Source: a virus. Taken from it: a stretch of DNA of 64,000 bases. Under the pieces are notes generated by a model. It made no database searches. It was given only the letters and a program-made list of their open reading frames with translations, and was not told the origin of the DNA. This document shows positions 18,366-39,992 of this stretch, in pieces. The translations under genes and the position numbers were made by a program. The number at the start of each line of letters is the position of its first letter. The stretch's first letter is position 1. Location of the stretch: positions 17,642 to 81,641 of IMG/VR virus record IMGVR_UViG_3300010399_000005, one strand, 5' to 3'.

Positions 18366-20078
18366 TCAGACCAGGTTGCAGGTCAGGCTGGCCGGCCCGG
18401 TGGCGCCGTTCACGCAGAAGTTGACCGTGACCAGTCGGGACTCGTGCCCGATTCTCGCGGTGAGCTTGCACTCTTCGGTCCAGGCCGCGGTGTGGTCGTT
18501 CTTCGCGTTGAGCGTGGAGTCCCGCACAACGCCGAGGTTGAGGTCGAGGCCCATGCCCACGACCCAGGTGCCCGCGGCGTAGATGAGGAACTGCACGTTC
18601 TCCGGCCAGGACGCACGTGGCGTGGTCTGCCCGAGGAAGTCGCCCGAACCGAGCTGCCAGTCACTGACGAACTGGACTCGAACGTGTCGCTCATCGAACC
18701 ACGCGCCGATCATGGCGTCCGTGACGGCCAGCAGGTCCATGCCGGTTCGCTTCGAGAGGTCGGAGCGGATCGCCTCCTTGGACCAGCGGGGTAGCACGAC
18801 CTCGAGCACCTCGTTGTCGCACATCCGATACTTCTCACGATAGTCGGCGGCCTGAAGGCCAACCGCTCCGAGGAGCCCGGTGGCGATCGGCACGTCGGTG
18901 CCGGTAACCGCGACGGAGGTGGAGCCTGCGACGATGTCAGCGATGATCCGCTGGTTCATCACGTGCTCATGAGCGTTCATCACGAGCCGCAGGTAGTTCT
19001 GGATGAGCTCGGGGTACGCGCTCTCCGTGAGGTTACCAGCGGTGACGCAGAGACCGTGACACGCGAGCCGCAGCTCGTTGAAGGTCGGGCACGGTACACG
19101 GACGCACGGCTTGGTGCCGGTGCCGGTGACGGCGGCGATGTCGTCGTTCTCGGTCCAGAGCCAGATGTTGCTCAGCACGTCGGCGATCGTCGGCGACGTC
19201 GGCCAGCGGATACCACCGCGCGTAACGCCCACGGTCGGGACGTCGAGCATCCCATCATCGCAGGCGATGTTGAAGAAGTCGTAAATGATCGTGCTGGGAG
19301 CGCACCAGCCGCCAGCAGCGACGAGGTTCTTCGGGTCGGCTGCCCGGTGCATGACGTCCCAGATCTGGGCCGGAGCGGCCTCACGATCCAGGACGATGTC
19401 GTACTCCTTGCGGACCGTGGCGACCGTGATGTTGCCCGAGGGAATGGCGAGCGTCTTGGCCCGACGGTGCATCGCGTCGGTGAGCACCTCGAGCGTCTCG
19501 AGTCGCCGGCCGGCCGCGTACATCGGCACGTCAGGAGCGGTGACGATCTGCGCCTGGGCGGCCATCGAGCTGACGCCCGGGTCCGGAGCTCGGCGAGCCA
19601 CCTCGCTAAGCGGAACGTTGAGGCGCTTCCGCTTCACGACCAGAGCACCTGTGCCTCGGATCGGACCGGCGGCGGTGACCTGCGAGGGCTCGTCCATGAT
19701 GGACTCGACCTCAGCCGGCTCGGGATCAGGCTCGGGCTCGGGATCAGGATCAGGCGGCTCGGTCGCAACGGTCTCGGAGCGAACGCCCATCTGCTCGAGC
19801 ACGGAGTCGAGCTCGGCGGCCTCGGCAGCCAGCCGCTCGTTCTCCTCATCCCGACGGTTCGTCTCGCTCTTGACCCGCTCGATGGCGGCTGTGATCGTCC
19901 GGAGCTCGGCGAGCTTGACCTCCGATAGGTTGCCGTCGCCTCGCACAGTGTCGAAGGTCCGGAGCAACTCGGAGCCCAGGGTCTCCAGGTCCGCGTCGGT
20001 CATGCTCGTCATGTCCTCGGGGACGACCAGGTTCTCATCGCCTCCCGGGTGGGTTTCAGGATCCATCAGCTTCCTCAC
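18366..20078 (-). CDS. Major capsid protein with N-terminal coiled-coil (scaffold-like) region
   Basis: LVAAGGWCAPS..IYDF...DVPTVGVTRGGI and DLGVVRDSTLN-like motifs; strong GC3 bias of a highly expressed gene; likely start ATG 20066 behind GAGGAAG. Confidence 0.9.
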   Translation of the reverse strand: MRKLMDPETHPGGDENLVVPEDMTSMTDADLETLGSELLRTFDTVRGDGNLSEVKLAELRTITAAIERVKSETNRRDEENERLAAEAAELDSVLEQMGVRSETVATEPPDPDPEPEPDPEPAEVESIMDEPSQVTAAGPIRGTGALVVKRKRLNVPLSEVARRAPDPGVSSMAAQAQIVTAPDVPMYAAGRRLETLEVLTDAMHRRAKTLAIPSGNITVATVRKEYDIVLDREAAPAQIWDVMHRAADPKNLVAAGGWCAPSTIIYDFFNIACDDGMLDVPTVGVTRGGIRWPTSPTIADVLSNIWLWTENDDIAAVTGTGTKPCVRVPCPTFNELRLACHGLCVTAGNLTESAYPELIQNYLRLVMNAHEHVMNQRIIADIVAGSTSVAVTGTDVPIATGLLGAVGLQAADYREKYRMCDNEVLEVVLPRWSKEAIRSDLSKRTGMDLLAVTDAMIGAWFDERHVRVQFVSDWQLGSGDFLGQTTPRASWPENVQFLIYAAGTWVVGMGLDLNLGVVRDSTLNAKNDHTAAWTEECKLTARIGHESRLVTVNFCVNGATGPASLTCNLV

Positions 20079-25120: not shown

Positions 25121-25687
25121 TCACCAGCGGTCAGGCAGTCCAGACGTGTTGTGTGAATCGTGATGCCACAACCATGTCACCTCGTTGACGTGATGGAACT
25201 TCGCACCTAGGTTCGACACCTGCATCCAGAAGTTGAAGTCTTCCCCACTGCACCCCACCCCGGTCAACGGCGGTGGGAAGTGACACTCTTGGGCCAGCTC
25301 GTTGCGCACGAGCGCGGTGATGGGGAAGGTGTGAGGTGTCGCGTGGTTCCACTGGATCCCGCGGTTGCAGGCGATCGGGTCACTCCCGCCGATCACGTTG
25401 AACCAGGGCCAGATCACATCTGCGCCCGTCGCCAGCTGCTCCCTGACCAGTACCTCCAGGTGACATGGCAGGAGCTCATCGTCGTCATCTACGAACGCGA
25501 GCCACTCGGTCTGGACCTGACGCATGGCCCGGGTTCTCGTCGGTCCAGCGCCTTCCTTGGTGTGGTCAAAGGCTACCGCAACCGCCGACGCCGGGTGCGA
25601 CTGAGCGGCGACAGATGCGAGTAGTCGAGACAGCAGCGGAGCGCGTGGTGGGATCGATGGCGTGACAGTCGTGATCTCAAGCGACAC
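25121..25687 (-). CDS. Glycosyltransferase family 2
   Basis: TTVTPSIPPR, EWLAFVDDDD (DxD), GEDFNFW; likely GTG start at 25687 within ORF 25121..25954. Confidence 0.85.
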   Translation of the reverse strand: MSLEITTVTPSIPPRAPLLSRLLASVAAQSHPASAVAVAFDHTKEGAGPTRTRAMRQVQTEWLAFVDDDDELLPCHLEVLVREQLATGADVIWPWFNVIGGSDPIACNRGIQWNHATPHTFPITALVRNELAQECHFPPPLTGVGCSGEDFNFWMQVSNLGAKFHHVNEVTWLWHHDSHNTSGLPDRW

Positions 25688-26012
25688 CCTTGATCTCCCG
25701 ACGTAGTGCTTCTTCATACACGCTAGTGACGTGCTCAGCGTGTGACCTACCGAGCTCACTCCAGCCACAACCACAAGCACTCGTCGATGTGCGCCAGTGG
25801 TAGACGAGCGTTGAGACGAGCAGCTCGTGCTCACGTGTTGACAGCGTAGCTGACGAGGGCTGCTCCAGTGTTTCACGTAGCACATCCGCGCTTGCGTGAA
25901 GGTTACGCCACAAGGTCTTACGGACAGCGTCGTCGCCCTCGGCCCAACCGTCACTCATACGACCCGCTGCATACACGAGTTGCCAGGCCTGCGCGATCAC
26001 ATCAGGTGACAC
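25677..26012 (-). CDS. Hypothetical protein
   Basis: Overlaps both flanking GT2 genes; C-terminal H...CGCG...H..H motif. Confidence 0.5.
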   Translation of the reverse strand: MSPDVIAQAWQLVYAAGRMSDGWAEGDDAVRKTLWRNLHASADVLRETLEQPSSATLSTREHELLVSTLVYHWRTSTSACGCGWSELGRSHAEHVTSVYEEALRREIKGVA

Positions 26013-26688
26013 GATCTGCTTCCTTCCACGACCGTCCAGCGGTCGAGCCTCCGTGATGGTAGCACCGCCACGTGCGCTCCGGATGATGAACGAACTTCGC
26101 ACCTACGTCGAGTAGGCGTAGGTGGCCACCCCAGTCCTCACAGTCTGACCTGGGCCACTCGGGTGTACCCGGCTGTGGGTAGCCTCCCGACCGCTCGAGG
26201 AGAGGACGACGAACGACCGTAGTGATCGGGATGAAGGGGTATTTACGGAAGTGCAGCTCCTGCTCACGACCCCACTCCACGCCCAGGGGATGCACGAGCT
26301 CGCCGTTGTTCATGGTGGCCAGTGGATCGGGTCGGTCTGGTGTCGCCTCATCCCAGCCCACGAGCTCGAACCACGAGTAGACCAGACCGGCCTGCTTCTC
26401 GATGAGTGTGTTCACGCACGCCTCAAGGTGATGCGGTAGGAACTCATCATCATCATCGAGGAACGCGACGAGCTCGGTCTCGGCCGTCCGCCACGCCGTG
26501 TTGCGTGTAGGTGCTGCACCAAGACCGTGCTCATCCAGCACTACGACCACTTCATCTGGTGCGAGCGTCTGCTTCTCGATCGAGCGGATCGCCCGATCGA
26601 GAAGCTGCTCGCGACCCGGGATGGTCGGGACGCAGACCGCAACGGTAGGTCGAATCAAATCACACCCAACTTTATCGAGTGTTTCCAC
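26002..26688 (-). CDS. Glycosyltransferase family 2
   Basis: VAVCVPTIPGR, RN.A, ELVAFLDDDD, CEDW motifs; paralogous to 25121..25687. Confidence 0.88.
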   Translation of the reverse strand: METLDKVGCDLIRPTVAVCVPTIPGREQLLDRAIRSIEKQTLAPDEVVVVLDEHGLGAAPTRNTAWRTAETELVAFLDDDDEFLPHHLEACVNTLIEKQAGLVYSWFELVGWDEATPDRPDPLATMNNGELVHPLGVEWGREQELHFRKYPFIPITTVVRRPLLERSGGYPQPGTPEWPRSDCEDWGGHLRLLDVGAKFVHHPERTWRCYHHGGSTAGRSWKEADRVT

Positions 26689-26794
26689 CAGATAAGATGC
26701 TCGAGCAACTCTTCAGGCCTCACATTAAATCTGTCGGCGGTGACCACGATCGCTCGAGTAAGTTCATCTGATCGTGTAAGCTCGATCTTCGTCG

Positions 26795-27118
26795 TCAACC
26801 GACGCCCATCTCGGCGGTTCCCCGAGCTCCCGGTGCGACGCCGTTCCCCACAGGCTTCCAGACGCCGAAGTACGTGGCAACGTGCCACGTGAACGTCGTG
26901 ACGAAGAGAATCACGATGTCCTGTAGGATGAACTCCCCGTGTGCGAGTGTGATCGCATCGATGACGGCGATCGCCGCAGTGATGAGCACCGCGATGAACG
27001 CCTTCGTGCCGGGGTGAGCCTGAAGCTTGGTGACGATTCCGGTCAGCACCGGAGACAGCGTGCCACCCAAGAGCGCCACGATCCAAGCAGCGAGCTCGAT
27101 CCTCGTACTAAAGTCCAC
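26795..27118 (-). CDS. Holin-like membrane protein
   Basis: AGGAGG RBS, GTG 27118; three hydrophobic segments; ends YFGVWKP.G. Confidence 0.6.
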   Translation of the reverse strand: MDFSTRIELAAWIVALLGGTLSPVLTGIVTKLQAHPGTKAFIAVLITAAIAVIDAITLAHGEFILQDIVILFVTTFTWHVATYFGVWKPVGNGVAPGARGTAEMGVG

Positions 27119-27318
27119 ATCATCCTCCTTGTGTAGGGCGGTGGATGAAGAACATCGTACCACACTTCACTGCTTATCGGTTGAATCCCGTCTCGTGATG
27201 ATCCAGAGGAAGATCGCGAAGATATCACACGCAGTCACGAAGAGCGTGAACTTCAAGAACATGTCCGCCACACTGCAGACCGCGTACTCCGCCGACACCT
27301 CAACCTCATCCTTACTTC

Positions 27319-27963
27319 TTAGTGAGAACTCGTCCACAAGTGGTGATCTCGACCCGCGGCTTCGATGGTCCAGGGGCACTGATGCGAGGTGGTAGACACG
27401 TGATGCTCGACGCCGAGTCCCTGTAGGACTCCGATCAGCCAGCCGGCCGCGGTGGTCTTCCACAACAGGTCATCATCGCCGTACCAGATCTCATACGCGC
27501 CGACGTCCTGCCAGGCTTCAGGACGAGCCGCGAACGCCCAGTTGGAGAACTCGCGACGATTGCCGGCCTGGTGACTGACCGCCGTCACTGCGAACGGCGG
27601 CGAGTTGACCGCTGAGTAGCCCGAGACACCCATCAGGCCGTAGTCTGGATGTCCGTCCAGCGCGTCGTGCAATGAGATCTCAAAGCCATCTGGTACGATG
27701 ATGTCATCGTTCAGTACGAGAAGATACGCATCCTGCTCACGCGCTCGGTGCGCAGCCTCGTTCCACTCATCGTAGATGGACTTCCCGGGACGATGATATA
27801 CGTACACGTTGACGTGCGCTTCCCGGACTCCGACGTGTTCGGGAACATCGTCGGAGTTGACGTAGAGCTCCACGACATCGATGCGATCTCGTAGGTATTC
27901 GACGAGACCGTCAAGGTCACGTGATAGACCGATCGTGGGGATGCACGCGTGAAGCTTAGGCAC
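27319..27963 (-). CDS. Glycosyltransferase family 2-like
   Basis: CIPTIG, WN, LLVLNDDI, WYGDDD, H..STT motifs. Confidence 0.8.
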   Translation of the reverse strand: MPKLHACIPTIGLSRDLDGLVEYLRDRIDVVELYVNSDDVPEHVGVREAHVNVYVYHRPGKSIYDEWNEAAHRAREQDAYLLVLNDDIIVPDGFEISLHDALDGHPDYGLMGVSGYSAVNSPPFAVTAVSHQAGNRREFSNWAFAARPEAWQDVGAYEIWYGDDDLLWKTTAAGWLIGVLQGLGVEHHVSTTSHQCPWTIEAAGRDHHLWTSSH

Positions 27964-27969
27964 ATCAAG

Positions 27970-28158
27970 CTACTCATCTAGATGGGTGACATCTTCACGA
28001 GGTATCATGATGGTCGTCCCATCGGGGAACTCCACCGGGACGCGGTCCGAGACCACGCCGTCGTGCTCGAAGGCTTCGACCCGAACACGATCACCACTCA
28101 TGAAGTAGCGGTGACCGTCGATCTCAAGCACTACCTTAGCCATGTCACGTCCCATCAA
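27970..28158 (-). CDS. Small hypothetical protein
   Basis: Packed between glycosyltransferase genes on the same strand. Confidence 0.45.
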   Translation of the reverse strand: MMGRDMAKVVLEIDGHRYFMSGDRVRVEAFEHDGVVSDRVPVEFPDGTTIMIPREDVTHLDE

Positions 28159-28828
28159 GATGAGGGTGTAGGGTTACGAAGTCGTTGACGAGCAGTTCAC
28201 CCGGTAGGTTGATCGGTGAGTCACCGGCCTGTCGCCAGACGAAGGGTTGTGACACTTGATCTTGATTCGTCCAGCGCACCTGCTCCTCGAGCCACCTACG
28301 TGCGATGTGCTCACGACGAACTGACCAGTGGGGGTACACGATAAAGCCCGTCGCCCAGAGACCCCAGTGATCGGGATGCCCGAGCTTACGGTAGTGCTGG
28401 GCCTGGGCTTCGATGGGTTGCGTGTAGTACTTGGGAAGTGTCGCTGAGAACTCTGCCTCGGTGAAGACACAGTCACGAGCTGGATGCCTGAACTGCCACG
28501 TGATCTCGGCAGCGATGTCAGGGTGAACGACATCTAGGAGACGTGTCACCGCACACTCATCCTTGAGGATGAACGACCCATCCATCCAGATCACGTATGC
28601 GTCAGTTCCGGTCCACTCCCACGGTTGAACCTTCGGTACCTTCGCCGCGAGCCGTGGATGTGTCAGGTCCGAACGAGGCTGACACACGACCTGCCAGGTG
28701 TCGGTGCTTGTGAGGTGGGGGTTGTCAGTGACGCACGTGAATGACACGTCAACCCCGACCTGGGCCGGCTGTTCCTTCAGTGCATCATAGTCACCAAAGA
28801 TACCAGTGATGATATGAACTCGCGTCAC
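28145..28828 (-). CDS. DUF616/TOD1-MUCI70-like glycosyltransferase
   Basis: ITGIFGDYD, CVTDN, AKVPK, IWMDGS, HPARDCVFTE, QDQVS motifs. Confidence 0.8.
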   Translation of the reverse strand: MTRVHIITGIFGDYDALKEQPAQVGVDVSFTCVTDNPHLTSTDTWQVVCQPRSDLTHPRLAAKVPKVQPWEWTGTDAYVIWMDGSFILKDECAVTRLLDVVHPDIAAEITWQFRHPARDCVFTEAEFSATLPKYYTQPIEAQAQHYRKLGHPDHWGLWATGFIVYPHWSVRREHIARRWLEEQVRWTNQDQVSQPFVWRQAGDSPINLPGELLVNDFVTLHPHLDGT

Positions 28829-28997
28829 TTAGAGTCAAGCTCCGTGGTCGGTAGCCAGCGTGCTCCGATCAAACGACCGAAGTTCTGTGCATCAGCACCT
28901 AGCAGCAGTACTTTTCCGATCTCGGTAGCATCATCGCGAATCGACGTAATGAAGTACTCATCCGAGACATCGATGATAAGCTGAAGTCGTCTCACAC

Positions 28998-29846
28998 TTA
29001 CACCGCGACAGTGTAGGGTGGCCGGTAGCTCTTCACGGCCTCGACGAACCGATCGTGGTCGAAGACTGGGTGCCAGCCGTGAAGCAGGTCCCAGCCTTGA
29101 CCGTGCGCGACGTCCTTCTCGGTGGACCGAGTGCGCTCACCCTTACGACGCGGTAGATGCTGGATGCGCGATCGCCCACCGGTGATCTGGATGATGTCAC
29201 GTGCGACCGACAAGACGTCCTGCACGTAACCCGTCCCGGCGTCGAAGACCTGACCGTCACCGAACTTCATCGCGGCGACCAGCACTCGAGCGACGTCATC
29301 GACGTGCACGAGATCAACGTGTAGTGAACCAGATCCCCAGATGGAGAGAGGTTCACCGAGCCAACCCGCCGTCGAGAACGAAGGGACGATCTTCTGAGGG
29401 TGATCTCCGCCGTACGCCTGACCTGGTCCGTACGCGTTGTAGGCTCGCACGTAGCTGACCCTGAGGTCACCACTGTGTCGGTAAGCTTCGCTGGTGTCCA
29501 TCGCACAAGCCTTCGTCGCGGCGTAGAGCGAGGGGTTCACCCGAGGCATCGTGATCTGCGTGAGACCCACGCCGTACTTCACACATGCGGTCGTGACGTG
29601 AAGACTACCCAGCACATTGACCTCGAACGCACGCTCCGCTTGATCCAGCAGTTCGTGTGTGCCGAGTAGACCAGCGAGGTGGATGACGTGATCGACATCG
29701 GCGACCGACTCGTAGACATCATCACGCACCGTGACGTCGAGTCCACCAGACCGATCGAACGACAGCGGCTCGTGTCCCTCAACGCGAAGGCGTTCAGTGG
29801 TGGCACGACCGATCCAGCCACTGCCACCTGTGATGAGGACTTTCAC
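28998..29846 (-). CDS. NAD-dependent nucleotide-sugar epimerase/dehydratase (extended SDR)
   Basis: LITGGSGWIG (GxxGxxG), HLAG, YAATK (YxxxK), NAYGPGQ, DLVHVDD. Confidence 0.9.
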   Translation of the reverse strand: MKVLITGGSGWIGRATTERLRVEGHEPLSFDRSGGLDVTVRDDVYESVADVDHVIHLAGLLGTHELLDQAERAFEVNVLGSLHVTTACVKYGVGLTQITMPRVNPSLYAATKACAMDTSEAYRHSGDLRVSYVRAYNAYGPGQAYGGDHPQKIVPSFSTAGWLGEPLSIWGSGSLHVDLVHVDDVARVLVAAMKFGDGQVFDAGTGYVQDVLSVARDIIQITGGRSRIQHLPRRKGERTRSTEKDVAHGQGWDLLHGWHPVFDHDRFVEAVKSYRPPYTVAV

Positions 29847-30385
29847 ATCCAGACCTCCGTGAGTCCGTGGTTGTGTAGAAACACACCGTGAACCTTCTCA
29901 CCCAGGAGCTCGTTCACGGCCATCCGCACTGGGTACGGAGGCTCAGTGCCGGGCACGTGATGCTCGAACCTCTCGACGTTCGTGTCGTGAAAGATCATTA
30001 CACCACCGGGACGCACCCGTGGTGCATACGCGATGATCTCACGCTTCGTCAACTCATACCGATGATCGGTGTCGACAAGAACGCAGTCTACCTGAGTGGG
30101 CAGCTCTTCGAGTACGTGTGGATCGAGGTCATCACCCTGGATGAACGTCCACCGGTTCGGAGGGATACCGTTCCACAGTCGTGCGACGTCGACGGACCAC
30201 AGGTGTCCATCAGTGTGCTCAAGTGCGTGAAGAAGTGCAACGGTCGACGTACCAAAGCGAACACCCAACTCGATGACTGACTTCGCCTTGAGCTCGATGA
30301 CACGCTGCACCAGGTGCTCGAGATGTTCGTTGATGTCCGAGGGTGTGGCGAGCGCAGCTTGATAGAAGTCGTGATAAGTACTCAT
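29843..30385 (-). CDS. Class I SAM-dependent methyltransferase (Methyltransf_24-like)
   Basis: VIELGVRFGTST, LWSVD, VDTDH.YE, VRPGGVMIFHDT. Confidence 0.88.
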   Translation of the reverse strand: MSTYHDFYQAALATPSDINEHLEHLVQRVIELKAKSVIELGVRFGTSTVALLHALEHTDGHLWSVDVARLWNGIPPNRWTFIQGDDLDPHVLEELPTQVDCVLVDTDHRYELTKREIIAYAPRVRPGGVMIFHDTNVERFEHHVPGTEPPYPVRMAVNELLGEKVHGVFLHNHGLTEVWM

Positions 30386-30794: not shown

Positions 30795-32978
30795 TTACTC
30801 CTCCGGCGGAAGAACCGTAGCGTTCTGATCCATGTTCCATGGATGATGCACAGTCTCATTCACAAAGTTCTTATAACCCTTCACTTCGAAGGGAACAGTA
30901 CTCGTGTAGACGGTGCCCATATCAGTCTTCTTATCATAAGTACCGAGGTTCGCTTCACCGTCACCCGTGTCAACATGCGTCTTACCGTTGCTCTCACGCG
31001 TCTTAAGACTAATGCCACGATCTTTCCCAACACTCTCAATGGCAGCACCATGCGACTTACCATCCTTAACGAGGTCAGCCGCATTCTTACTCGCTGACAA
31101 CCTACCATCAGGATGCGCCTTATCGTAATCACCGCGCTTCTTGAAGATCATCATTTGAGCACTCTCAGAACCGTGACCCTGATGTCCACCGGGTGGACCC
31201 TGGATACCACGCTTCTTAGTGCCTGCGCCACCACCGTCACCACCACCGCCGCCACCACCGCCAGTGGACTTCGCTCCACCAGACTTAGCTCTTGCAGAGG
31301 AACCGCCTCTACCCTTTGTGTACTGGTTATTACCGTTACCGATAAACGTCTCGGCTGCAACACTCGCCTCAACTCGGCGGATCACCAGGGTGCCCGGGGG
31401 ATAGGGCTGGGTAGACGCTTCAACGCGCTCCTCGGTGGCGACGCCAGCGGCAACCAGCGCGGTCCAGGGGCCCTCTTCGGTGGAGGCCGCAACGCGCATC
31501 CTCGGGATCGGGAATCCCGGCACGTTCACCCCCAGCACAGCGACGAGACGAAGCTTCCCGGCGATGACTCGCCAGTCACCCGACAGCGACGCGCCTCGCA
31601 GTTCACGAAGCCGCTCTTCATCGACGTTCGGCCGGACCGCACCCGCGACCCAGATGCCGTGTGCGTCCTCACCAACGTTGATGTCACACGCGGCCAGACC
31701 GGTGTTGTCGTAGTGAGCGGCGGCCGGCACGGCGCCCAGTGTGGTTGAGGCGTGACCAGTACCGAACGTGATCGTGCCAACCGCGACGCTCTCATCCTCC
31801 CTGGTGCGAAGCTCGTGACGAAGGAAGTAAGCGTGATCACGTTCCTTCGGTGGTGTGATGCAGCGATTGGGAAAGGTCGTGTGGCACGTTCCCCAGAGAG
31901 CGAGGTGCCCGAACACCTGACCGTCATCGGTGATGGTGAACGGTGTTGCTTGTGGGAGCTTCGGGTCGGTGAACCAGTCGCTAGGTGGGTAGACCGGAAC
32001 TCCCGCCGAGGTCAACGCATCACGGTCCTGCACGATGTTCTCCGGGTCGCTCTCGTACGGTTCGGTCCCATCATCGATGAGAGCGAGTGGATCACCTGCC
32101 GCCGCCAGTGGCACCGACAGCGCCTCATCTTCATCGATGAGTTGCAGTCGTCCCTCCACCAGTGCGGGAAGTCGACACATCGTCACACCACGAATGCGAC
32201 CACCGTGAAACACCCTCTTCTCAGGTGCACCGAGAATGAACTTTGGAACAGTGCCGTCGCCGACATCGGTGGGAGCGTCATCCAGGGTCTCATCGGGAAA
32301 GACGAGCTCGACCTTCTGCACCGAGTCGATGTCGGCCGACAAGCCACCAGCGTAGCCACCCTTCGTCAGGCGGACCACCTCACGGCCGTTGTCCGAACCG
32401 AGGTCGAGGACTCCCCACGCGTGGATGTCCGCTGTGCCATCGTCCTTGTGAACTCGCTCGATGTGGTTCACACGACCAACCGTCACAGCCTCCTCGTGCT
32501 GTGGGAGATCCTTCGGCTGCCAGCTCAGGAGGATCAAGCTGGTCGTAGGATCCTCCCACGTCAGGGAGTCGACGGCGAACTCACGACCATCCCCGGTCTC
32601 ACTGCCCTCGGTGAGGATGATCCCGTGCCAGGGCTTGATGGGTAGGAGTTCATCGGTATCCGCGGTCTCGATGGCGTACGTCTGCCACTTAGGTACGCAC
32701 TTACCCTTCACCATCTTGTGGTCTGAAGAGCACGGCTGGTTCTCCTTCAGCCGCTTATCCGGCGACGTCCCAGGGGAGGGATCACCACCGAGCTTCTCGA
32801 CGATGCCCACGCCTAGGGAGAGGAGCGACTCGGCCTGTGCATAGAGCGCCGCGACCTGTCGATCAGCTGCCTCCTCGGTGGGATGACACCCAGCGACTTC
32901 ATCGTCGGCGTCCCTCACCACCGCCCAGGGTCGCGAGGAAGGACAGTCTTCACGGTTCTGCTCGACGTGCCAGGGCAC
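30795..32978 (-). CDS. Capsid maturation protease-like protein with appended C-terminal domain
   Basis: EGSETGDGREF, GLSADID, GHLALWGTCH, GEDAHGIWVAG, LSGDWR, VNVPGFP motifs; follows portal/MuF; Gly-rich linker and Lys-rich extension. Confidence 0.8.
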   Translation of the reverse strand: MPWHVEQNREDCPSSRPWAVVRDADDEVAGCHPTEEAADRQVAALYAQAESLLSLGVGIVEKLGGDPSPGTSPDKRLKENQPCSSDHKMVKGKCVPKWQTYAIETADTDELLPIKPWHGIILTEGSETGDGREFAVDSLTWEDPTTSLILLSWQPKDLPQHEEAVTVGRVNHIERVHKDDGTADIHAWGVLDLGSDNGREVVRLTKGGYAGGLSADIDSVQKVELVFPDETLDDAPTDVGDGTVPKFILGAPEKRVFHGGRIRGVTMCRLPALVEGRLQLIDEDEALSVPLAAAGDPLALIDDGTEPYESDPENIVQDRDALTSAGVPVYPPSDWFTDPKLPQATPFTITDDGQVFGHLALWGTCHTTFPNRCITPPKERDHAYFLRHELRTREDESVAVGTITFGTGHASTTLGAVPAAAHYDNTGLAACDINVGEDAHGIWVAGAVRPNVDEERLRELRGASLSGDWRVIAGKLRLVAVLGVNVPGFPIPRMRVAASTEEGPWTALVAAGVATEERVEASTQPYPPGTLVIRRVEASVAAETFIGNGNNQYTKGRGGSSARAKSGGAKSTGGGGGGGGDGGGAGTKKRGIQGPPGGHQGHGSESAQMMIFKKRGDYDKAHPDGRLSASKNAADLVKDGKSHGAAIESVGKDRGISLKTRESNGKTHVDTGDGEANLGTYDKKTDMGTVYTSTVPFEVKGYKNFVNETVHHPWNMDQNATVLPPEE

Positions 32979-33032
32979 TGGATACCTCCACGGTCGGTGG
33001 TAGCACTATATACCACCTAGGAGAGGTCTCGA

Positions 33033-33173
33033 CTAGTGCTCCTCGTCGTCCTCCGCCTCGGCGGCGAGACGGTCGATCTCATCATCGAGTTCCTTGCGTC
33101 GCTTATCTTCCTCCTCCGGCGTCCCACTCACACGGAAGTCGAAGTCACTGATGCGTTCCTCAGCTGAAGCCAT
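33033..33173 (-). CDS. 46-aa highly acidic protein (candidate ART inhibitor/immunity)
   Basis: MASAEERISDFDFRVSGTPEEEDKRRKELDDEIDRLAAEAEDDEEH; TAGAAT 6 nt before the ATG; below the ORF-track size cutoff. Confidence 0.5.
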   Translation of the reverse strand: MASAEERISDFDFRVSGTPEEEDKRRKELDDEIDRLAAEAEDDEEH

Positions 33174-33193
33174 GCTTCCATTCTATCGTCAGT

Positions 33194-35338
33194 TCACAGC
33201 ATATCGAACTCGTGAACACCGTTCTCATTACGACCTATGAACTTCAACTGGGTACCACGTGGGAAGATCAACTCCTTCTCACTCTCGGTACCGGCGATCA
33301 TCTTCTTCCCCTTCGGGACGTTGATGTGCATCAACACACCACCCGTTCCGCCGTAGTCGAGTCCCGCAAAGTTCTTAGCAGTGTATGTGCTCGTCGTGGT
33401 CGACATGAAGCCATCTTCAGTGATCGTCGTACCAGGCTTGAGTGCCCTAAGCTTGTTCCCAAGACCACTCTTCACACCGCGTTGCACCATCATCGGAGCG
33501 CTGTTCGTCGTACCGATCACGTCGAACGACTTATCGAGACCCTTCACATGCAACGCGTAACCCGAGCTTAGACTACGCTCTCGCAGCCCGGTGTTGATGG
33601 GATGGTAGCCACTACCTGTGTAAGATGAGTGAGCTTGAACGATGTGGTTCTCTTCATCAGTTCGACGCTCATAGGGCTTCTTCTTAATGATGTCCCGGTT
33701 CTTCGCGACACGGTCACGTACGATGTCGGCGTTCTTCTGCCGTGCTGTCTTTGAGAGCTTGCTACCGGTAGACGTAGTCTTTCCAACTTCGCCACCACTC
33801 GCCTTGTTGATTCGCTTCGACGCTTTAACCTTGACGTAGTACGCCTTCTTGGTGTACTCCGTCGAGCTGATCTCGCCACTCTTAAGCTTGGCGTTGAGGT
33901 CGGAGTACTCCTTCGTCTCGGCCTCGTTGAACTGATGAGGTCCAACCTCACTCGGCTTAAGAAGCTTCTTCTTACGCTCCACTGAAGCCCAAGGAGCAGT
34001 ACCGCTTCCGGTCTTCTTAAGTACATCCTTATGATATGTGACCGGTCCGTACTTCGTCTCGACGACGAGGTAGTCACCGTCTTCACGGATAACCTTACCC
34101 TTACTACCGGCGGCCGAGGTGACCTCATCACCCACCTTGATCTTCCCGGTGTCCCCACCGACTGAAGACTTCGGTTCCTTTACCTCTGAGGTCTTCTTAG
34201 TCGTACCGCCCGCCTTCGCACCGTTCGCTTTGTTGATGCGCTTGGCGGCCTTCACCTTGACGTAGTAGGACTTATACTTGAACTCTTTCTCAGAGATGGC
34301 GCCACTCGCGTACTGTTGAGCGATGTCATTGAACTCATTGAACTCTTCGTCATTGAAGTGCTGCCCACCGATCGCACTCGGCTTGATCGGCTTCTTACCC
34401 TCACCTCCGCTTGCCTCACTTCCACCAGAGGATCCACCTCCTCCCTTAGGTGCGAAACGTCCGTGGTTGTCACGAACGTAACGGTCCCCACCCTTGACGA
34501 ACGTCTCGACAGCAGCACTCGATCTAAGTGATATGTCTTCATACTCCCAGGTCACCGTGCAGCGACAGTTCACACGGTTGGCGGCCGACGCATCGGGATC
34601 ACCGGGGTAGCTGAGCTTCTCACCACCCACTCGAAAGTCGCCGAAGAAGTCCACGACCTGACCGTCGGCAGCACGGTGAGAGACCCTCGTGCGTGAGTCA
34701 TGCGTTGAGAGCCAGACCTTGCGCTGTGGTGCGTTGGGTCCTAAGAGCAGGAGCTGCTGGTAGGCTCCGGCGTTGGACGCCCCGATGACCTCGGTCCGTG
34801 CGATGGTCCGAGCACGAGTGTCCGTCGTGCCCAGGACCTCCTTGACGCGCAACGAGAGCTGTGGAATCGACTCACCCAGCTGCATACCCTGGATCAGCTC
34901 ATCCCGAGTCTTCTTCCACATGTCATCGCCGACGCCGACGAGTTGGTTCTCGACCTGCGTGAGGAAGTGCTGAGCTTGAGGATGTGAAAGGTCGAAGAGC
35001 ACTGGAGCCTGGACCGAGATCTCGTGTAGGACACGGTCCGCTGAGAGACGCATCACATCTTCCAGCTCGGGTATGATCGTCTTCTTCACCTCGGCTCGCC
35101 ACGCTCTCTCAATGAGCACGAGTTGATCCAGTGAGAGAGTCGTGGGAAGGATCGGTGAGATGGGCGTCGAAGGTGGAGTGTAGGGCGGAGGAGGTCCCGA
35201 CTCAGGTGCAGCGTCGGCAGCGGTAAGTGTAGTAAGCTCCTTGATCTTCCGCTCAATCTCAGCGAGCCGACGATCCTCGACCTCACGTGAATCGGCGACA
35301 CGAAACGCTTCATCAATGAAGCGTGTGGGTACACTCAC
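33194..35338 (-). CDS. MuF (SPP1 gp7-like) minor head protein fused to a C-terminal ADP-ribosyltransferase
   Basis: RARTIARTE, KVWLSTHDSRTRVSH, YPGDP, NCRC (MuF); then YTGSGY..IN..LR, VQRG, FMSTT, EKELIFPRG (VIP2/C3-like R-S-E ART). Confidence 0.9.
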   Translation of the reverse strand: MSVPTRFIDEAFRVADSREVEDRRLAEIERKIKELTTLTAADAAPESGPPPPYTPPSTPISPILPTTLSLDQLVLIERAWRAEVKKTIIPELEDVMRLSADRVLHEISVQAPVLFDLSHPQAQHFLTQVENQLVGVGDDMWKKTRDELIQGMQLGESIPQLSLRVKEVLGTTDTRARTIARTEVIGASNAGAYQQLLLLGPNAPQRKVWLSTHDSRTRVSHRAADGQVVDFFGDFRVGGEKLSYPGDPDASAANRVNCRCTVTWEYEDISLRSSAAVETFVKGGDRYVRDNHGRFAPKGGGGSSGGSEASGGEGKKPIKPSAIGGQHFNDEEFNEFNDIAQQYASGAISEKEFKYKSYYVKVKAAKRINKANGAKAGGTTKKTSEVKEPKSSVGGDTGKIKVGDEVTSAAGSKGKVIREDGDYLVVETKYGPVTYHKDVLKKTGSGTAPWASVERKKKLLKPSEVGPHQFNEAETKEYSDLNAKLKSGEISSTEYTKKAYYVKVKASKRINKASGGEVGKTTSTGSKLSKTARQKNADIVRDRVAKNRDIIKKKPYERRTDEENHIVQAHSSYTGSGYHPINTGLRERSLSSGYALHVKGLDKSFDVIGTTNSAPMMVQRGVKSGLGNKLRALKPGTTITEDGFMSTTTSTYTAKNFAGLDYGGTGGVLMHINVPKGKKMIAGTESEKELIFPRGTQLKFIGRNENGVHEFDML

Positions 35339-36021
35339 GTGATCACCTCAGCATCGAAGACCTCAGCACCGAGCGCTGTCTCGGTCGATCTTCCCGTGAT
35401 CTTATAGCGAGTGCCGCGGTTGAGGATGAGCTCTCCTTGTTGCTCCATACCACCAACGACAGGTGTCCCCGCTGGCACCTTGATCTTAAGCCTCACATTA
35501 CCGAACTCGAAGCCGTTCGCCGACGTCGACATGTACCCATCTTCTACGAGCTCGGTCCCGGTGCTCGTGTTGAGTCCCGAGTGTCGTTGAAGACTACGTG
35601 TAACGGTGACGTCACTGGTGGATCGCACGCTCGAGTGACTGAACACTTGATCCATACCCTTGATGGCCTCGGCCGAGTTCGCATCCATCTCACGTAAACC
35701 ACGAAGAGAGCGATTCATCCCCTCGTAACCACCACCCATGTACTGCAGTCGAGCCATCTTACCCTCGGGCGTCGCCGTCTCATTGAAGTGTGCCTGTGCT
35801 TCAGCGTGTAGGTCTTCCGCACTCGACGCATCGACGCTCTTTACACTACCGTGACCGTGAGTACGCTGGTCGTGATGAGCACCTAGGTGAAGAGTCTCGA
35901 TGCTCGCAGTCAGAGCCTCAGTCGTACCAGCCTTGATAGCACGTCGTAGCGCTCGAGCGACGAGTGCGTCGAAGTGCTCGACAAGTAGATCAAGCTCTTC
36001 CTCGCTAAGAACAATCGGCAC
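35335..36021 (-). CDS. ADP-ribosyltransferase (VIP2/C3-like)
   Basis: Y.GGGY..MN.SLRG, VTRS, GYMSTS, QGELILNRGT. Confidence 0.8.
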   Translation of the reverse strand: MPIVLSEEELDLLVEHFDALVARALRRAIKAGTTEALTASIETLHLGAHHDQRTHGHGSVKSVDASSAEDLHAEAQAHFNETATPEGKMARLQYMGGGYEGMNRSLRGLREMDANSAEAIKGMDQVFSHSSVRSTSDVTVTRSLQRHSGLNTSTGTELVEDGYMSTSANGFEFGNVRLKIKVPAGTPVVGGMEQQGELILNRGTRYKITGRSTETALGAEVFDAEVIT

Positions 36022-37903
36022 AGTCCACCGTGCCTCTTACGAGCCGTTCCAGGGTCCCACGGTCGTACTCCACCCCTTCATTCAACATCGTCCGACAGTA
36101 GCTCCCAAGCTCACGCACGGTCAGCACTGGGTCCAGGCCGATGTCACCTAGCGTCGCGAGTGCAAGACGAAAGACTCCCTCAAGTGGGTCGACCTTAGCC
36201 GAACCCTTCATACGGTTCCTCGCCACCTCAAGAGCTCGCTTCACATGTCCCTCAAGCACGAGCACACGTGCACGGTCGATCGTCAGCTGCTCGGGAGGTT
36301 CATCATCAACAGACGTCGGCTTCGGCGGTGGACCCTCACCGGTATCATCGGTAGGAGGAGGCTCAGGTGCACCCTCACCCGACACACTCGGACTGGTGAC
36401 TGTGATCGGCGTCGGTGTGACCTCGGGAAGCGTGATACCCAGGCCCTTGAGTGCGGCGGCCGCGAGTGTGGAGTCACTGACGAGCTTACGAAACGCCCAG
36501 GCCGCGAGCTCTTCATCGTCAGGAGCGTCGGACTCGGCGAACCCGAGAACACGCCGAGTCGAGTCGCCGCCTAGCTCACCTCGATCATAGAGGTCGAGAG
36601 CGGGCTTCGACTGGTCGGGCTTCGCTGACATCGCACTGGTGTCGGCCCAGAGAACGATGTCCTCGGTATCTTCACCCTGTGCCTTGAGCACCGGTGTGAG
36701 GTAGTTGCGCGTGAGATCGCCAGTGATGAGCTCGAGCAGTGGTTCGGCGTGGACGTTGATCGCGTCCTCACTGATCTGCCACGCGTTCCAGTGCGTGAGG
36801 TCGCCCATGCCCATGATGACCTCGGGTGGCACATCCAGCGCCGTGGCCACGCGCTTCTGCGCCGATTCTCGCATCTCCAGGATACGATCGGACAGCTCCG
36901 TCGACCAGTTCACCAGCTTGAACTTGTCGACGTGCTCAGCGGGCACCTCAACGGGTATCGGAACGATCTGTGCCGCAGTTCCTGGCTGTCGAACGGCCGT
37001 CATCATGACGTTCAGCACTTCGGTGATGAAGGGGTGCTGTCCCTGTGTCTCAGTCGGAGCGGTCGGAAACCGAGCCTCTGTGGGGAACACGAGTAGACCT
37101 GCACCGGCGAGCCTCGACACAAGGGTGGCGTCGATGTACTGGTTGATGCGGCGTAGCTCGCGGAGCGCACCGATGGCCGCGTGTGTCGGGCTGTCAGGCT
37201 TCCAGAACCAGCGCTGGTGGGGTCGCCAGAACTTGACGACCATCGTGTCCTCAGGTGGAAGAGTCTTCCACGCACCCTCATCATACTGAAGCTCATAGAC
37301 CGGGGGTGAGTTCGGAGTGGCTGGGTTCTTAAGACGTAGGACGTCTTGGCTTACGACTCGCCACTGGTCGTCGGCGTTGTCGGTGTCGGGCGTGATGTCA
37401 GCCAGGCCGCTTGAACCGAGTAGGTACCCGACGCCCGGGACGGACAGCTGCACCACGAATGAGCGCAGTAGTTGTGACTGTCCCTCGACTCCACCAGCGA
37501 GCGCTTCGACGGCGTCGACCGCCGGGCCGCTCTCCAGAGGCTCAGGCTCCGTGTCACCACTGACAACCTTTGCAGCGCGAAGCCTCGCCTTGCTGATGAG
37601 GTTTGAGAGCCAAGTGACACCGAACTTCAACCCCTCTCCGTCGGGTCCGTCATAGAAGTCCCAAGCTTCACTCTGCCAGTTGTCACGGCTGCGAGCTGGG
37701 TCGTCCATCCGAGTGCCGGGCAAGACTCGTGACGCCGCGACGAGTGCACCCGAGTGCATCACAACGTTCGAGTCGTCGGGTCCAGGAAGTACCACCACTT
37801 GTGCTTCAGAGCGGTCCACGTGTCTTGTCCTCGAAGTCCTTCTGGAGATTCGTCTTAATCCAGAACACCAGGTTGACGAGCTCCCCTGTGAGTCCAGCCA
37901 CAA
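36005..37903 (-). CDS. Portal protein
   Basis: WQSEAWDFYD, WRPH, SRLAGAGLL.FP, ATALDVPPE, HWNAWQI motifs of actinophage portals; follows terminase; real start is probably near 37800. Confidence 0.88.
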   Translation of the reverse strand: MWLDSQGSSSTWCSGLRRISRRTSRTRHVDRSEAQVVVLPGPDDSNVVMHSGALVAASRVLPGTRMDDPARSRDNWQSEAWDFYDGPDGEGLKFGVTWLSNLISKARLRAAKVVSGDTEPEPLESGPAVDAVEALAGGVEGQSQLLRSFVVQLSVPGVGYLLGSSGLADITPDTDNADDQWRVVSQDVLRLKNPATPNSPPVYELQYDEGAWKTLPPEDTMVVKFWRPHQRWFWKPDSPTHAAIGALRELRRINQYIDATLVSRLAGAGLLVFPTEARFPTAPTETQGQHPFITEVLNVMMTAVRQPGTAAQIVPIPVEVPAEHVDKFKLVNWSTELSDRILEMRESAQKRVATALDVPPEVIMGMGDLTHWNAWQISEDAINVHAEPLLELITGDLTRNYLTPVLKAQGEDTEDIVLWADTSAMSAKPDQSKPALDLYDRGELGGDSTRRVLGFAESDAPDDEELAAWAFRKLVSDSTLAAAALKGLGITLPEVTPTPITVTSPSVSGEGAPEPPPTDDTGEGPPPKPTSVDDEPPEQLTIDRARVLVLEGHVKRALEVARNRMKGSAKVDPLEGVFRLALATLGDIGLDPVLTVRELGSYCRTMLNEGVEYDRGTLERLVRGTVDCADCS

Positions 37904-38150
37904 GAGCGGCCGCTGGCACGAGCAGTACCGGTACTGAGAGACGAACGTCTAGAAGTCGAGCACCGATCACGCTGACTAGTGAGACCCAGAAGCCGGTACA
38001 CCACCAGCACGTCAGGAGGTACATCATCGAGCCACCGTCTCTCGCCCAGTGCATCAGACGACTACGCGTCCAGTCGATGGGTGGAAACTCAGATGCGACG
38101 ACGAGGTAAGTGAGGTACGTGACCGCCAGTACGACGAGTAGCTCATTCAC
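37806..38150 (-). CDS. DUF1360-like membrane protein
   Basis: YLLTCWWCTGFWVS (CxWC) between hydrophobic helices; between terminase and portal. Confidence 0.7.
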   Translation of the reverse strand: MNELLVVLAVTYLTYLVVASEFPPIDWTRSRLMHWARDGGSMMYLLTCWWCTGFWVSLVSVIGARLLDVRLSVPVLLVPAAALVAGLTGELVNLVFWIKTNLQKDFEDKTRGPL

Positions 38151-39694
38151 CTGTCCGGTCCTCGCTCTCTGAGCAGTGATTCTAGCAGAGCAACCTCTTC
38201 GGTGGATGCCTCCGATGGTTGACCTAGGTTTGTGAGTATGCGTGCGGCCGGCAGGTTCGCGTCCATGATATCACCCTCCCAGTACGCCATGAGCAGCGCG
38301 TCGGCGTGGTCCGGGCTTCGACCCAGGCGCGCGTGCACGAGGTCCTTGGGTTCGATCTTCACACGACCCTGCGAGTCGATGATCTCATAGTGCGACTCGG
38401 TCAACTCGACGATGGTGTCATCATCCACCTCGGTGAGATCCCAGTGCTTCAACCGCGAGAGCTCACGACCGTGCCAGTGAAGCTCAGCACGCTTATTGAG
38501 AAACCTCTTCACGTTCCTCGTCGTCGGACGCTCGGCCGCGTTGAAGGGTACGACGACTGCACTGTGCGTCGTGTCCGATGACGTGGGCTCGTGAAAGCGT
38601 GAGAGCTCCTTCAGACGACCACACACTCCCCAGCCCAGACCGATCACATCGACGACGACACGCTCGATCTCCCACTCCTCGAGTCGAGCCGCGATCTCAC
38701 CGACCTGCTTCATCGGGTCGCTCTCATTCCACGTAAGCTCACGACCTGCGTGTTGACCAATGCGCTCACGCAACACCGTCAGATCTCCACCGCCGCCGAC
38801 GTCCAGCCCAGCACAGCGCGCACCAGCTGCTGGAAGCTCGACGTACCGACACGCCGTAGCCCAGGAGAAGGGGATGACGCCCGAGTCCGCGTCGGTGGGG
38901 AACCGACCGCCGACCTTCGAGACGTAGAGAGCGGATCCCGTGCCCCACGTCTTACGCTTCTCCTCGACCCAGACCGGTGACACCAGCGAGTCGGCCACGT
39001 GAGGCTTCACAGGTTCACCCGTGAAGTTCGGAGTGTGACTCGCCGAGATGTGTATGGTGTTCCAGCCCGAACCTGGACGACACACTCGAGCGAACTCGCC
39101 GTGTGGGTTGTCGGGGTTTCCGATGGCGAGGATCCGTGAGTGCTCGTTCGCGGTCAGTGTCGATGCGGCGTCCCAGAGAGACTTCTTAATGCCGCACGCC
39201 TCATCAAGCACCACGAGGACGAACCTCGAGTGGATGCCCTGGAACGCTTCCTCATCATAATCCGCCGGCTTCCGGCCTAGGGCGATGAGCTCGTTCCCGA
39301 CGTACCACTCGGTTAGGTTCATGCGCCCAGCGAGCTGGCCACGAGCGTGGAGGCGGTTCATCTCACGCCAGAGGATCGCCCGCACCTGTGTGTTGGTCGG
39401 AGCGGTGGTGACGACGAACGCCTCACCGATCGGTCGGGTCCCGATCCACCAGACGGCGGTGGCTGCTGCCGTGAGGCTCTTTCCACTCTCGTGACAGCTG
39501 TGAACGGAGGTCAGACGTTCGTCACGGACCGACTCGATGATATCACGTTGCTTCGACCAGAGCTGGATGTCGAGCTTCTCATCGCACCAGCGCACAGGAT
39601 CCCGACGGTACACGAGGTCAGGTGGCTGCAGCATGTCGAGCGCAGCGAGGAACCCATCTCTTACTAGGTCCTCATCGTCGATGTAGCCACTCAC
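38147..39694 (-). CDS. terL: Terminase large subunit
   Basis: Walker A-like SCHESGKS, TTAPT..QV, Walker B VVLDEACG, IGNP, GLDVG nuclease Asp, SPDHADA. Confidence 0.93.
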   Translation of the reverse strand: MSGYIDDEDLVRDGFLAALDMLQPPDLVYRRDPVRWCDEKLDIQLWSKQRDIIESVRDERLTSVHSCHESGKSLTAAATAVWWIGTRPIGEAFVVTTAPTNTQVRAILWREMNRLHARGQLAGRMNLTEWYVGNELIALGRKPADYDEEAFQGIHSRFVLVVLDEACGIKKSLWDAASTLTANEHSRILAIGNPDNPHGEFARVCRPGSGWNTIHISASHTPNFTGEPVKPHVADSLVSPVWVEEKRKTWGTGSALYVSKVGGRFPTDADSGVIPFSWATACRYVELPAAGARCAGLDVGGGGDLTVLRERIGQHAGRELTWNESDPMKQVGEIAARLEEWEIERVVVDVIGLGWGVCGRLKELSRFHEPTSSDTTHSAVVVPFNAAERPTTRNVKRFLNKRAELHWHGRELSRLKHWDLTEVDDDTIVELTESHYEIIDSQGRVKIEPKDLVHARLGRSPDHADALLMAYWEGDIMDANLPAARILTNLGQPSEASTEEVALLESLLRERGPDR

Positions 39695-39719: not shown

Positions 39720-39992
39720 TCACCACTTCAGTCGTGAGTGACTAAGTCTAGCCTGCACCCGAAGCCTTCGTCGTTCGCGCCGTCCTGTGCCACCCCAGAC
39801 CCCGAAGTCCGTGGACATCGAGTAGGTCAGAGCATACTCGAGACACTCAAGTCGCACAGGACACCTAGAGCAGATCTCTTTCGCGGGTTCCGAGTCCTTC
39901 TCAAGATCCGGAAAGAAAAGACTTGGGTCCATGTCACGACACGCTGCCTCAAGACGCCACGTCTGTGTAGCAATCTCGGCGAGAAAGCTCAC
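39720..39992 (-). CDS. whiB: WhiB-family transcription factor
   Basis: W...AAC, LFFP, C..CPV..EC, GVWGG and a basic tail. Confidence 0.95.
   Translation of the reverse strand: MSFLAEIATQTWRLEAACRDMDPSLFFPDLEKDSEPAKEICSRCPVRLECLEYALTYSMSTDFGVWGGTGRRERRRLRVQARLSHSRLKW

Follow-up and report, generated by a model that had tools for sequence, protein, structure and literature searches.

Three described systems come closest to the head genes studied here. These genes lie at positions 30795-36021 of a 64,000-nucleotide stretch of viral DNA (the window; bases 17642-81641 of the 81,641-bp virus record IMGVR_UViG_3300010399_000005, which has direct terminal repeats), and they encode an ADP-ribosyltransferase (ART) behind a short leader, a second ART behind a MuF domain, and a probable prohead protease with a C-terminal extension. 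In the article text of two studies, polymorphic MuF toxins and MuF-VIP2 fusions, ARTs included, are described (Jamet et al. 2017, PMC5576092; Jacobs-Sera et al. 2020, PMC7302621), toxin-less relatives are found among the MuF-VIP2 phages (Percival versus Floof, PMC7302621), and delivery of MuF toxins together with the DNA has been proposed. In phage T4, according to the article text of PMC9958956, about 40 copies of gpAlt reside in the prohead core, the protease gp21 trims short peptides from the N-termini of Alt and the internal proteins, and foreign proteins are loaded by means of a capsid targeting sequence. Polyvalent proteins, finally, are described in the article text of Iyer et al. 2017 (PMC5512222) as strings of effectors (ART, 2H, Zeta-like, peptidases) that are linked with MuF or portal; packaging and injection are predicted for them, and their processing by zincin-like metallopeptidases has been proposed.

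At the present locus, three different head genes carry a similar junction, and on balance we lean towards reading their products as head-internal proteins made of anchor, junction and cargo, in which short motifs at the junctions would tag the cargo for addressing and/or processing. A conserved junction is common to three head genes, and in relatives the part behind it is swapped or lacking; this suggests a common tag for head-carried proteins.

Results

Conserved motifs at the junctions of three head genes

We distinguish motif A, HLxGxH[DN]QxxHG, motif B, (P/Y)xRDxxG[RK][FW]xxxGG, and motif C, GNGNNQYTKG. In the window, motif A is found in the leader-ART protein, motif B (RDxHGRFAPKGG) in the MuF-ART protein and motif C in the protease; over the whole 81.6-kb genome the motifs occur at these three junctions only, plus one loose motif-B match. 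The leader of 40 residues, the minor-head domain MuF and the prohead protease would be the anchors. Each would lead through a probably disordered junction to its cargo, putatively an ART in two genes and, on the protease, a small domain of unknown kind. The junction plan would be a hydrophobic-E-x-[F/L] end, immediately followed by motif A, B or C and then by a Gly-rich spacer. The features of the three genes are:

35335-36021, minus strand: leader + ART gene, 228 aa, overlapping the 3' end of the portal gene
35902-36021, minus strand: N-terminal leader, residues 1-40, MPxxLSxEELDxLxExFDALVxRxLRRAxxAGTxEALTA
35848-35904, minus strand: ART junction S40-L44 (SIETL) and motif A, H45-G58 (HLGAHHDQRTHGHG)
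33194-35338, minus strand: MuF + junction + repeat-bearing linker + ART gene, 714 aa
34433-34516, minus strand: MuF junction A275-F280 (AAVETF) and motif B region, G283-G302 (GGDRYVRDNHGRFAPKGGGG)
33794-34393, minus strand: two basic repeats of ~57 residues (...YYVKVKA[AS]KRINKA.G), one on each side of a small Gly/Lys-rich beta-like unit
30795-32978, minus strand: prohead protease gene with C-terminal extension, 727 aa
32739-32804, minus strand: fourth junction I59-L63 (IVEKL) and G64-N80 (GGDPSPGTSPDKRLKEN), near the protease N-terminus
31311-31358, minus strand: protease junction A541-F545 (AAETF) and motif C, I546-G556 (IGNGNNQYTKG)
30798-31310, minus strand: Gly-rich linker, residues 557-600, then C-terminal domain, residues 601-727, of unknown function

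The leader-ART protein reads ...TASIETL and then HLGAHHDQRTHGHG (E42-L44 at 35890-35898), the MuF-ART protein ...SSAAVETF and then VKGGDRYVRDNHGRFAPKGGGG (E278-T279-F280 at 34499-34507), and the protease ...SVAAETF and then IGNGNNQYTKGRGG (E543-F545 at 31344-31352). The original prediction, which was made from the DNA letters alone, had pointed to E-T-F/L at these three places with a basic Gly/Ser/Lys-rich part after each, and to a weaker GIVEKL-GGDP near the protease N-terminus. All four are present at the places named, Gly/Ser/Lys- or Gly/His-rich sequence comes after each, and IVEKL/GGDPSPGT occupies protease residues 59-71. It had also taken E-T-F/L itself for the shared element, and in this respect it has to be revised, since E-T-F/L occurs at chance frequency and what is conserved are the short motifs just after it and the preceding hydrophobic F/L. 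E-T-F/L is a by-product of a real and more informative feature: the junctions hold conserved motifs, and these mark head-cargo modules that are exchangeable.

The relatives bear on where the modules begin. Among the proteases, P0013 (525 aa, 69% identical) terminates with ...RRAIAKESV exactly at the junction, while P0011, P0012 and P0065 read ...EEF, ...DETF and ...SETF, respectively, followed by IGNGNNQYTKG and the extension; E543 is invariant, being kept in 4/4 protease relatives, and the nearest other relatives stop at most 10 residues past GT[IL]xVRR. All eight close MuF relatives keep L-E-[ML]-F, with both E and F retained, and behind it stands RDNHGRFAPKGG (motif B) in six and HLKGKHNQHDH (motif A) in two; the pattern of the six is xKxGDPYxRD[NS]HGRFAPKG and that of the other two HLKGKHNQHDHA(HG). 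In the ART relatives motif A takes the form HLGxxH[DN]QxxHG, with F/L-H...H[DN]Q..HG kept in 5/5. The residues ahead of it in five distinct relatives are VKF, VVF, EIF, EIF and ALF, so that E is kept in two and F in all five. Three leaderless ART relatives begin 5-10 residues ahead of motif A. The leader is found on an ART in P0004 and P0005, on a 2H phosphoesterase in the viral contig L002 (2942-3613), on a 1176-aa 2H-MuF-ART protein (P0015), on 2H-MuF (P0021) and directly on MuF-ART (P0016); among these 2H calls, P0021 alone passes the Pfam cut-off for a 2H family.

The original prediction had proposed to compare relatives for variable C-termini starting at the motif, and gain, loss and swap were indeed found in protease and MuF. 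Its claim that interchangeable parts begin at the junctions likewise holds: P0013 ends there, the MuF relatives switch motif there, and the leader heads four cargo arrangements. Judged from these alignments, the junction positions are true module boundaries and the parts downstream are exchanged.

These relatives are few. The large protein databases yielded a handful at 46-77% identity, and one, the 28-kb contig L002, was readable as DNA. Among cultured phages, megablast with the 5.2-kb region found no DNA-level relatives, and in tblastn the nearest were actinophages at less than 60% protein identity, with the C-terminal parts uncovered by any match; protease and capsid protein both match the same 877 cultured-phage records. 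A scan of viral contigs with the ART protein found no relatives.

The junction motifs in the wider protease family

With the protease as query, an exhaustive search returned 4255 proteins at E <= 0.001, from which the best 148 representatives and 4 clade members (152 in total) were examined. Tails were measured from the conserved N.PG[FY] anchor, which was located in 131 of the 152; the other 21 were left out. The median tail is 74 residues, with at most 110 residues in 106 proteins and more than 110 in 25. Motif A, B or C is present in 12 of the 25 long tails versus 0 of the 106 short ones, and in 10 of these 12 it begins 53-93 residues past the anchor, where ordinary proteases end. The density amounts to 12 motifs in 6,255 long-tail residues versus 1 in 84,590 residues upstream of the anchor, a ~160-fold difference. 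The rule is not absolute, given that 13 long tails are without motif A, B or C. Examples are P0152 (SVTEF/HLPGEHDQSDHAGG), P0107 (EALF/HLIGKHDQSAHG) and P0127 (ALEW/NEEDHPRDKDGKFGGGG), and in P0124, a distant protease, VEQF/YAPGQPRDARGRWAKSGG is followed by a Zeta_toxin domain.

Motifs A and B in other phages

Searched as a degenerate DNA pattern (H-L-x-G-x-H-D-Q-x-x-H-G), motif A was found in at least 190 viral-contig stretches. At positions that the pattern leaves unfixed, the 93 distinct contexts listed have K at -1 in 82 cases, V/L/I/F at -3 in 65, W at +13 in 53 and A at +14 in 53; this conservation at unfixed positions implies that the matches are not chance. In 31 of the 49 complete open reading frames (ORFs) listed, 12-78 residues separate the motif from the start; in the remainder it is internal. 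Among the matches listed, several contigs carry 5 to more than 10 copies at a spacing of ~490-750 nt. Such arrays, in L005-L014 and L034-L059, consist of genes or modules each with K/HLxGQHDQSxHG[NS]WA and adjoin a MuF gene. In all five contigs tested, the MuF gene is on the strand of the array, either beside it, a few kb upstream or, in one contig, in a 2180-aa frame shared with the modules. The domains in 27 motif-A ORFs, which were listed per ORF and not by position relative to the motif, include ADPrib_exo_Tox, Zeta_toxin, SprT-like, 2H, PNKP-type phosphatase, MuF plus HNH, ParB C-terminal, DUF7178 and DUF3626; several ORFs match nothing.

Motif B stands near the N-terminus of gp78 of the cultured Gordonia phage Forza, encoded by the gene after the portal gene (...HALTAAF/KMNSGKFDEAKHPRGADGRFIHKGG). 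Cyanophage PSS2 gp030 was considered as a motif-A protein and rejected: it matches a motif-A protein in the latter's Zeta-like part only, is itself without motif A, and has one loose motif-B match at residue 415.

The ART and MuF proteins

In the 228-aa protein, Pfam places ADPrib_exo_Tox (PF03496) at residues 74-215 with 45.8 bits. R-S-E-type residues are discernible by eye (NRSLRG, YMSTS, QQGE), and the match to the Alt-like ART family phrog_802 is weak (E 1.1e-6) and covers residues 65-146 only. The 714-aa protein has Phage_Mu_F (PF04233) at residues 143-262 (62.7 bits versus a cut-off of 29.6) and the second ART (PF03496) at residues 569-700 (42 bits). MuF and ART thus form one polypeptide in the window, and in P0015 leader, 2H, MuF and ART are joined within 1176 aa. 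The MuF linker contains a DNA repeat, D1 (33793-33881 versus 34219-34307, 72% identity). In the alignment, the copy number of linker units differs among the MuF relatives, which are 698-1176 aa long; this varying number suggests that the units form a tether of varying length or a string that binds DNA.

The protease and its C-terminal extension

The 727-aa protein matches head maturation protease families of PHROGs over residues 321-515 and has no sequence match in Pfam, NCBIfam or the PDB. An AlphaFold model of residues 300-545 built from 63 sequences is confident over residues 329-499 (core pLDDT >90) and poor from ~500. Its best structural match is T4 gp21 (5jbl; Z 7.8, rmsd 3.2, 119 residues), where a Z below 8 calls for caution; ~35 herpesvirus protease entries follow with Z 4-7, and the Foldseek E-values are weak (0.07 at best). 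Residues H366, H409, S466, D438 and D468 are invariant across the 63 sequences. With moderate confidence, the protein is taken as a prohead protease of the gp21/assemblin fold. The junction is predicted to be disordered (pLDDT 41-58).

The C-terminal extension comprises ~180 residues. For its last domain, an AF2 model (pLDDT 70, core 80-91) predicts three helices and a five-stranded sheet. The domain has no match in Pfam, PHROG or NCBIfam and no usable one in the ESM Atlas; the best match in the PDB has Z 4.6, and in BFVD none reaches E <= 0.001 (best 0.009). A metagenome scan with the protease alignment found four loci that encode most of the protease, all of them MuF-protease fusions of ordinary length without the extension. 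A passenger domain past the normal C-terminus of a prohead protease was not met with in the literature, though no search was aimed at that point, and such a protein appears undescribed.

The original prediction had noted by eye that the DNA past the motifs is more AT-rich, and this is correct for the protease (GC ~0.50-0.51 at 30800-31200 versus 0.60-0.70 at 31300-32900) as well as for MuF (0.515-0.565 at 33200-34400 versus 0.575-0.635 at 34500-35300). The shift in codon usage is confined to the protease, where the GC content at third codon positions (GC3) falls from 0.72 in the body to 0.44 for the linker and is 0.52 for the C-terminal domain; MuF has a flat GC3 (0.66 versus 0.65), so that the GC drop there reflects amino-acid composition. 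RVEAS, which had been described as duplicated at the protease junction, does occur twice as a peptide, but the codons differ (cgc gtt gaa gcg tct versus cga gtt gag gcg agt) and the peptide is absent from the protease relatives. A recent DNA duplication is rejected on both counts.

At the fourth junction, G65, P67, S68, G70, T71, D74 and R76-N80 are invariant in four sequences, and a preceding E-x-[LF] is present in three of the four. GDPSKGTKKDKRLKEN, from this region, is found too in the distant locus L200. Residues 1-52 of the protease (32822-32978) form a module, PWAVVxDxDxEVxGCHxxxxxAxxQxAALYAQ, that also heads an unrelated 554-aa protein of viral contig L030; this protein matches phrog_80 over positions 1-89 and continues after the N-terminal module with a phosphatase domain and an internal motif A. 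In L002, the closest relative that has been sequenced, a papain-family (C1) peptidase gene (7254-7979; PF00112, 24.6 bits) lies between MuF and protease; the window has no such gene.

Genomic surroundings

On the minus strand the gene order is large terminase (TerL), portal, leader-ART, MuF-ART, protease, glycosylation genes and major capsid protein. The neighbouring features are:

38147-39694, minus strand: large terminase
36005-37903, minus strand: portal (phrog_776)
26002-26688 and 25121-25954, minus strand: two glycosyltransferases (phrog_14775)
18366-20078, minus strand: major capsid protein, 570 aa (NF033847, 545.6 bits)

The gene block 25121-30385 (minus strand) between protease and capsid gene is present also in L002 and may serve virion glycosylation; by eye only, two of its genes look like those of an NAD-dependent epimerase (28998-29846) and a methyltransferase (29843-30385). 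The gene at 17444-18331, next to the capsid gene, matches phrog_779, a family of unknown function, and related phages have a capsid pentamer protein at that place. A 90-aa ORF at 39720-39992 (minus strand) shows the Cys pattern C...CxxCxxxxxC and a basic tail and, by eye, resembles WhiB-like regulators. The capsid protein's N-terminal region, ~140 residues that include a coiled-coil-like part as well as Pro/Glu/Asp repeats, ends VTAAG/PIRGTGALVVKRKRLN, and in the 81%-identical relative L003 it ends ITAAG/PTRGTG.

Discussion

We favour a tag reading, which would account for the place of the motifs both at the N-terminus of free cargo and between the modules of fused proteins. The comparisons show the module boundaries, the exchange at them, a close tie of the motifs to add-on modules and, for motif A, a wide distribution beside MuF genes; cargo cassettes begin at the motifs and swap between phages there. 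In the mechanism that we envisage, the MuF anchor would enter the procapsid as a minor head protein, the leader by some contact, and the protease via its own capsid-directed tail; in the HK97 protease the capsid-directed tail is C-terminal. The cargo would then leave with the DNA as T4 Alt does. Candidate enzymes for a possible cut at the motifs are the phage's own, probably gp21-fold, protease, SprT-like peptidases of the arrays and the product of the papain-like gene of L002.

Several observations weigh against this reading. Any domain end with a flexible linker will also look like a hydrophobic residue with a Gly-rich stretch behind it, and ET[FL] occurs 10 times in the 93 crude ORFs of the window versus 8.85 expected from shuffles ([AVI]ET[FL], 4 versus 1.9). 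Motif C was seen in five sequences of this small clade only, and two of these (P0001, P0010) represent the protein of the window itself. Motifs A, B and C are all absent from the major capsid protein, which is the sole substrate of the protease that is certain. For the domain at the end of the protease no function is recognisable, which makes the label 'effector' a guess. The glutamate lost in the ART relatives counts against the tag reading, and it counts against cleavage by the prohead protease, too. In cultured phages, tblastn with a 35-aa junction peptide and a 60-aa motif-A N-terminus returned nothing, a result in which the low-complexity filter may hide matches. Lastly, three phage records with motif-A arrays, two of them about complete, gave no match to five prohead-protease models; one of the five, S77, says nothing, its control having been silent.

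Among the competing explanations, a somewhat doubtful one takes the junctions as nothing more than recombination joints and flexible tethers, with the motifs acting as microhomology and the cargo staying tied, without any role in cleavage or addressing. Different motifs do stand behind one and the same LE[ML]F, relatives differ in how many tether repeats they have, the sharp GC3 drop in the protease extension suggests recent acquisition, and the arrays downstream of MuF look like orphan cassette arrays. Furthermore, the protease and MuF junctions agree at 19/22 positions over a stretch of 22 nt (31345-31366 versus 34500-34521, encoding ASVAAETF and SSAAVETF); other matches on the 22-nt scale and of similar size exist within the same 5.4 kb, and the junction match may be microhomology for exchange, or chance. 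Joints alone sit poorly with the free-standing cargo genes, which keep motif A close to their start (31/49 complete ORFs listed), and with K at -1 and W at +13, whose conservation over unrelated cargo points to selection on the peptide and not on the DNA alone. Moreover, arrays of at least 10 kb in phage genomes of 52-62 kb are unlikely to be silent spares.

We regard it as unlikely that E-T-F/L, or its E, is the recognition site of the phage's own prohead protease and thereby frees the cargo inside the head, which is one form of what the original prediction had put forward. Enzymes of the gp21 type cut after Glu, at [LI]-x-E in T4 and at [SAG]-x-E in phiKZ-like phages. The protease of the window is modelled with the T4 gp21/herpesvirus assemblin fold, a Glu at -3 from the motif would fit Glu-cutting enzymes, A-V-E, A-A-E and S-I-E stand before T-F or T-L at the three junctions, and the site falls within a stretch predicted to be disordered. 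The E is kept in 8/8 MuF and 4/4 protease relatives; it is missing, however, in 3/5 ART relatives, and the P2/P3 residues vary among relatives (PLE, ALE, VLE, TEE, DE, SE, KE). The capsid protein contains RSETV and VESI in its N-terminal region, yet in the 81%-identical relative one site is partly kept (RVESD) and the second is absent. The chance frequency of E-T-[FL] in the genome and the lack of motifs A, B and C in the capsid protein speak against this explanation as well; that the three array phages have no detectable prohead protease argues against a general prohead-protease site.

It is less likely again that the protease cuts at [LV]-T-[AS]-A-[AG] and that motifs A, B and C serve another role. 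VTAAG, or ITAAG, closes the acidic N-terminal region of the capsid protein right ahead of PxRGTGALVVKRKRLN, in the window as well as in the 81%-identical relative. Similar strings lie ahead of the protease domain (ALTSAG), at the leader end (EALTAS) and in the MuF N-terminus (TLTAAD, SLTAAA), AVLTAAA links MuF to protease in P0023, and a similar xLVA[AS]G is widely retained in protease tails. Against this stand the composition of the pattern, in which common residues abound, and its count over the genome (4 versus 1.9 expected, not significant). Finally, a likeness of the three junctions due to chance and the usual make-up of linkers would agree with the expected frequency of ET[FL] and with three downstream motifs unlike one another, but it is very improbable given that the junctions coincide with points of gain, loss and swap in relatives and that the density of the motifs in long protease tails is ~160-fold that upstream of the anchor.

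Extending the tag reading to other phages, we tentatively propose, as a possibility for which the odds are still somewhat unfavourable, that HLxGxH[DN]QxxHG, (H/D)PxRDxxG[RK][FW]xxGG and clade variants like GNGNNQYTKG constitute a widespread, undescribed head-cargo peptide code of tailed phages. A tag would open each cargo module, whether a free array gene by MuF or a module fused behind MuF or protease, and would direct procapsid loading and/or module separation. If so, the injected effectors of uncultivated phages could be listed from sequence, among them ARTs, Zeta-like kinases, 2H phosphoesterases, SprT-like peptidases and ParB-like proteins. Proteins co-injected with the DNA act before phage gene expression and are thus prime candidates for early counter-defence and host takeover. 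Since they are hard to recognise by sequence, a tag would make the class searchable in metagenomes. It would also explain the movement of cargo among MuF, protease and free-standing genes, and it would give a handle for loading chosen proteins into heads, like the T4 targeting sequence. A protease that carries its own passenger domain into the capsid would be a new cargo-loading route.

Comparison with known systems

The principle of a short motif that marks both the start and the exchange point of a variable toxin cassette is familiar from VENN in CdiA and DPxGL in Rhs proteins. This is an analogy only, as proteins, delivery route and motifs differ from those of the phage junctions. For the exact motif strings, a search of the open-access literature, with subscription papers and supplements outside its scope, found no relevant papers.

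With the MuF toxins, as presented in the article text of PMC5576092 and PMC7302621, the window shares an N-terminal MuF, a variable C-terminal toxin, ARTs included, and a position adjacent to the portal. It differs in that its junction is conserved and common to two other head genes, in its tether with repeats, and in having a second ART paralogue upstream, free or leader-borne. Cleavage, proteolysis, motif, linker and junction have no mention in the searched text of PMC5576092, whose supplementary tables lay outside that scope.

T4 Alt, in turn, is a head-carried ART with a short N-terminal loading peptide that a gp21-fold protease removes (PMC9958956, article text); the ARTs of the window would resemble it as putative head cargo, and the protease of the window is modelled with that fold. 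Unlike the T4 targeting sequence, to which they have no sequence similarity, the motifs of the window are also found internally between modules, and unlike T4 the motif-A array phages may lack a prohead protease.

The polyvalent proteins combine the same types of cargo within strings, whereas here these types are encountered also as arrays of separate genes with the motif near each start. The three proteins of the window have no metallopeptidase domain in Pfam, and the junction-motif strings were not found in the searched text of PMC5512222, supplementary tables being outside the scope. Altogether, MuF-ART fusions and packaged ARTs are known, and what the present locus appears to add as undescribed are the junction motifs and a cargo-bearing protease.

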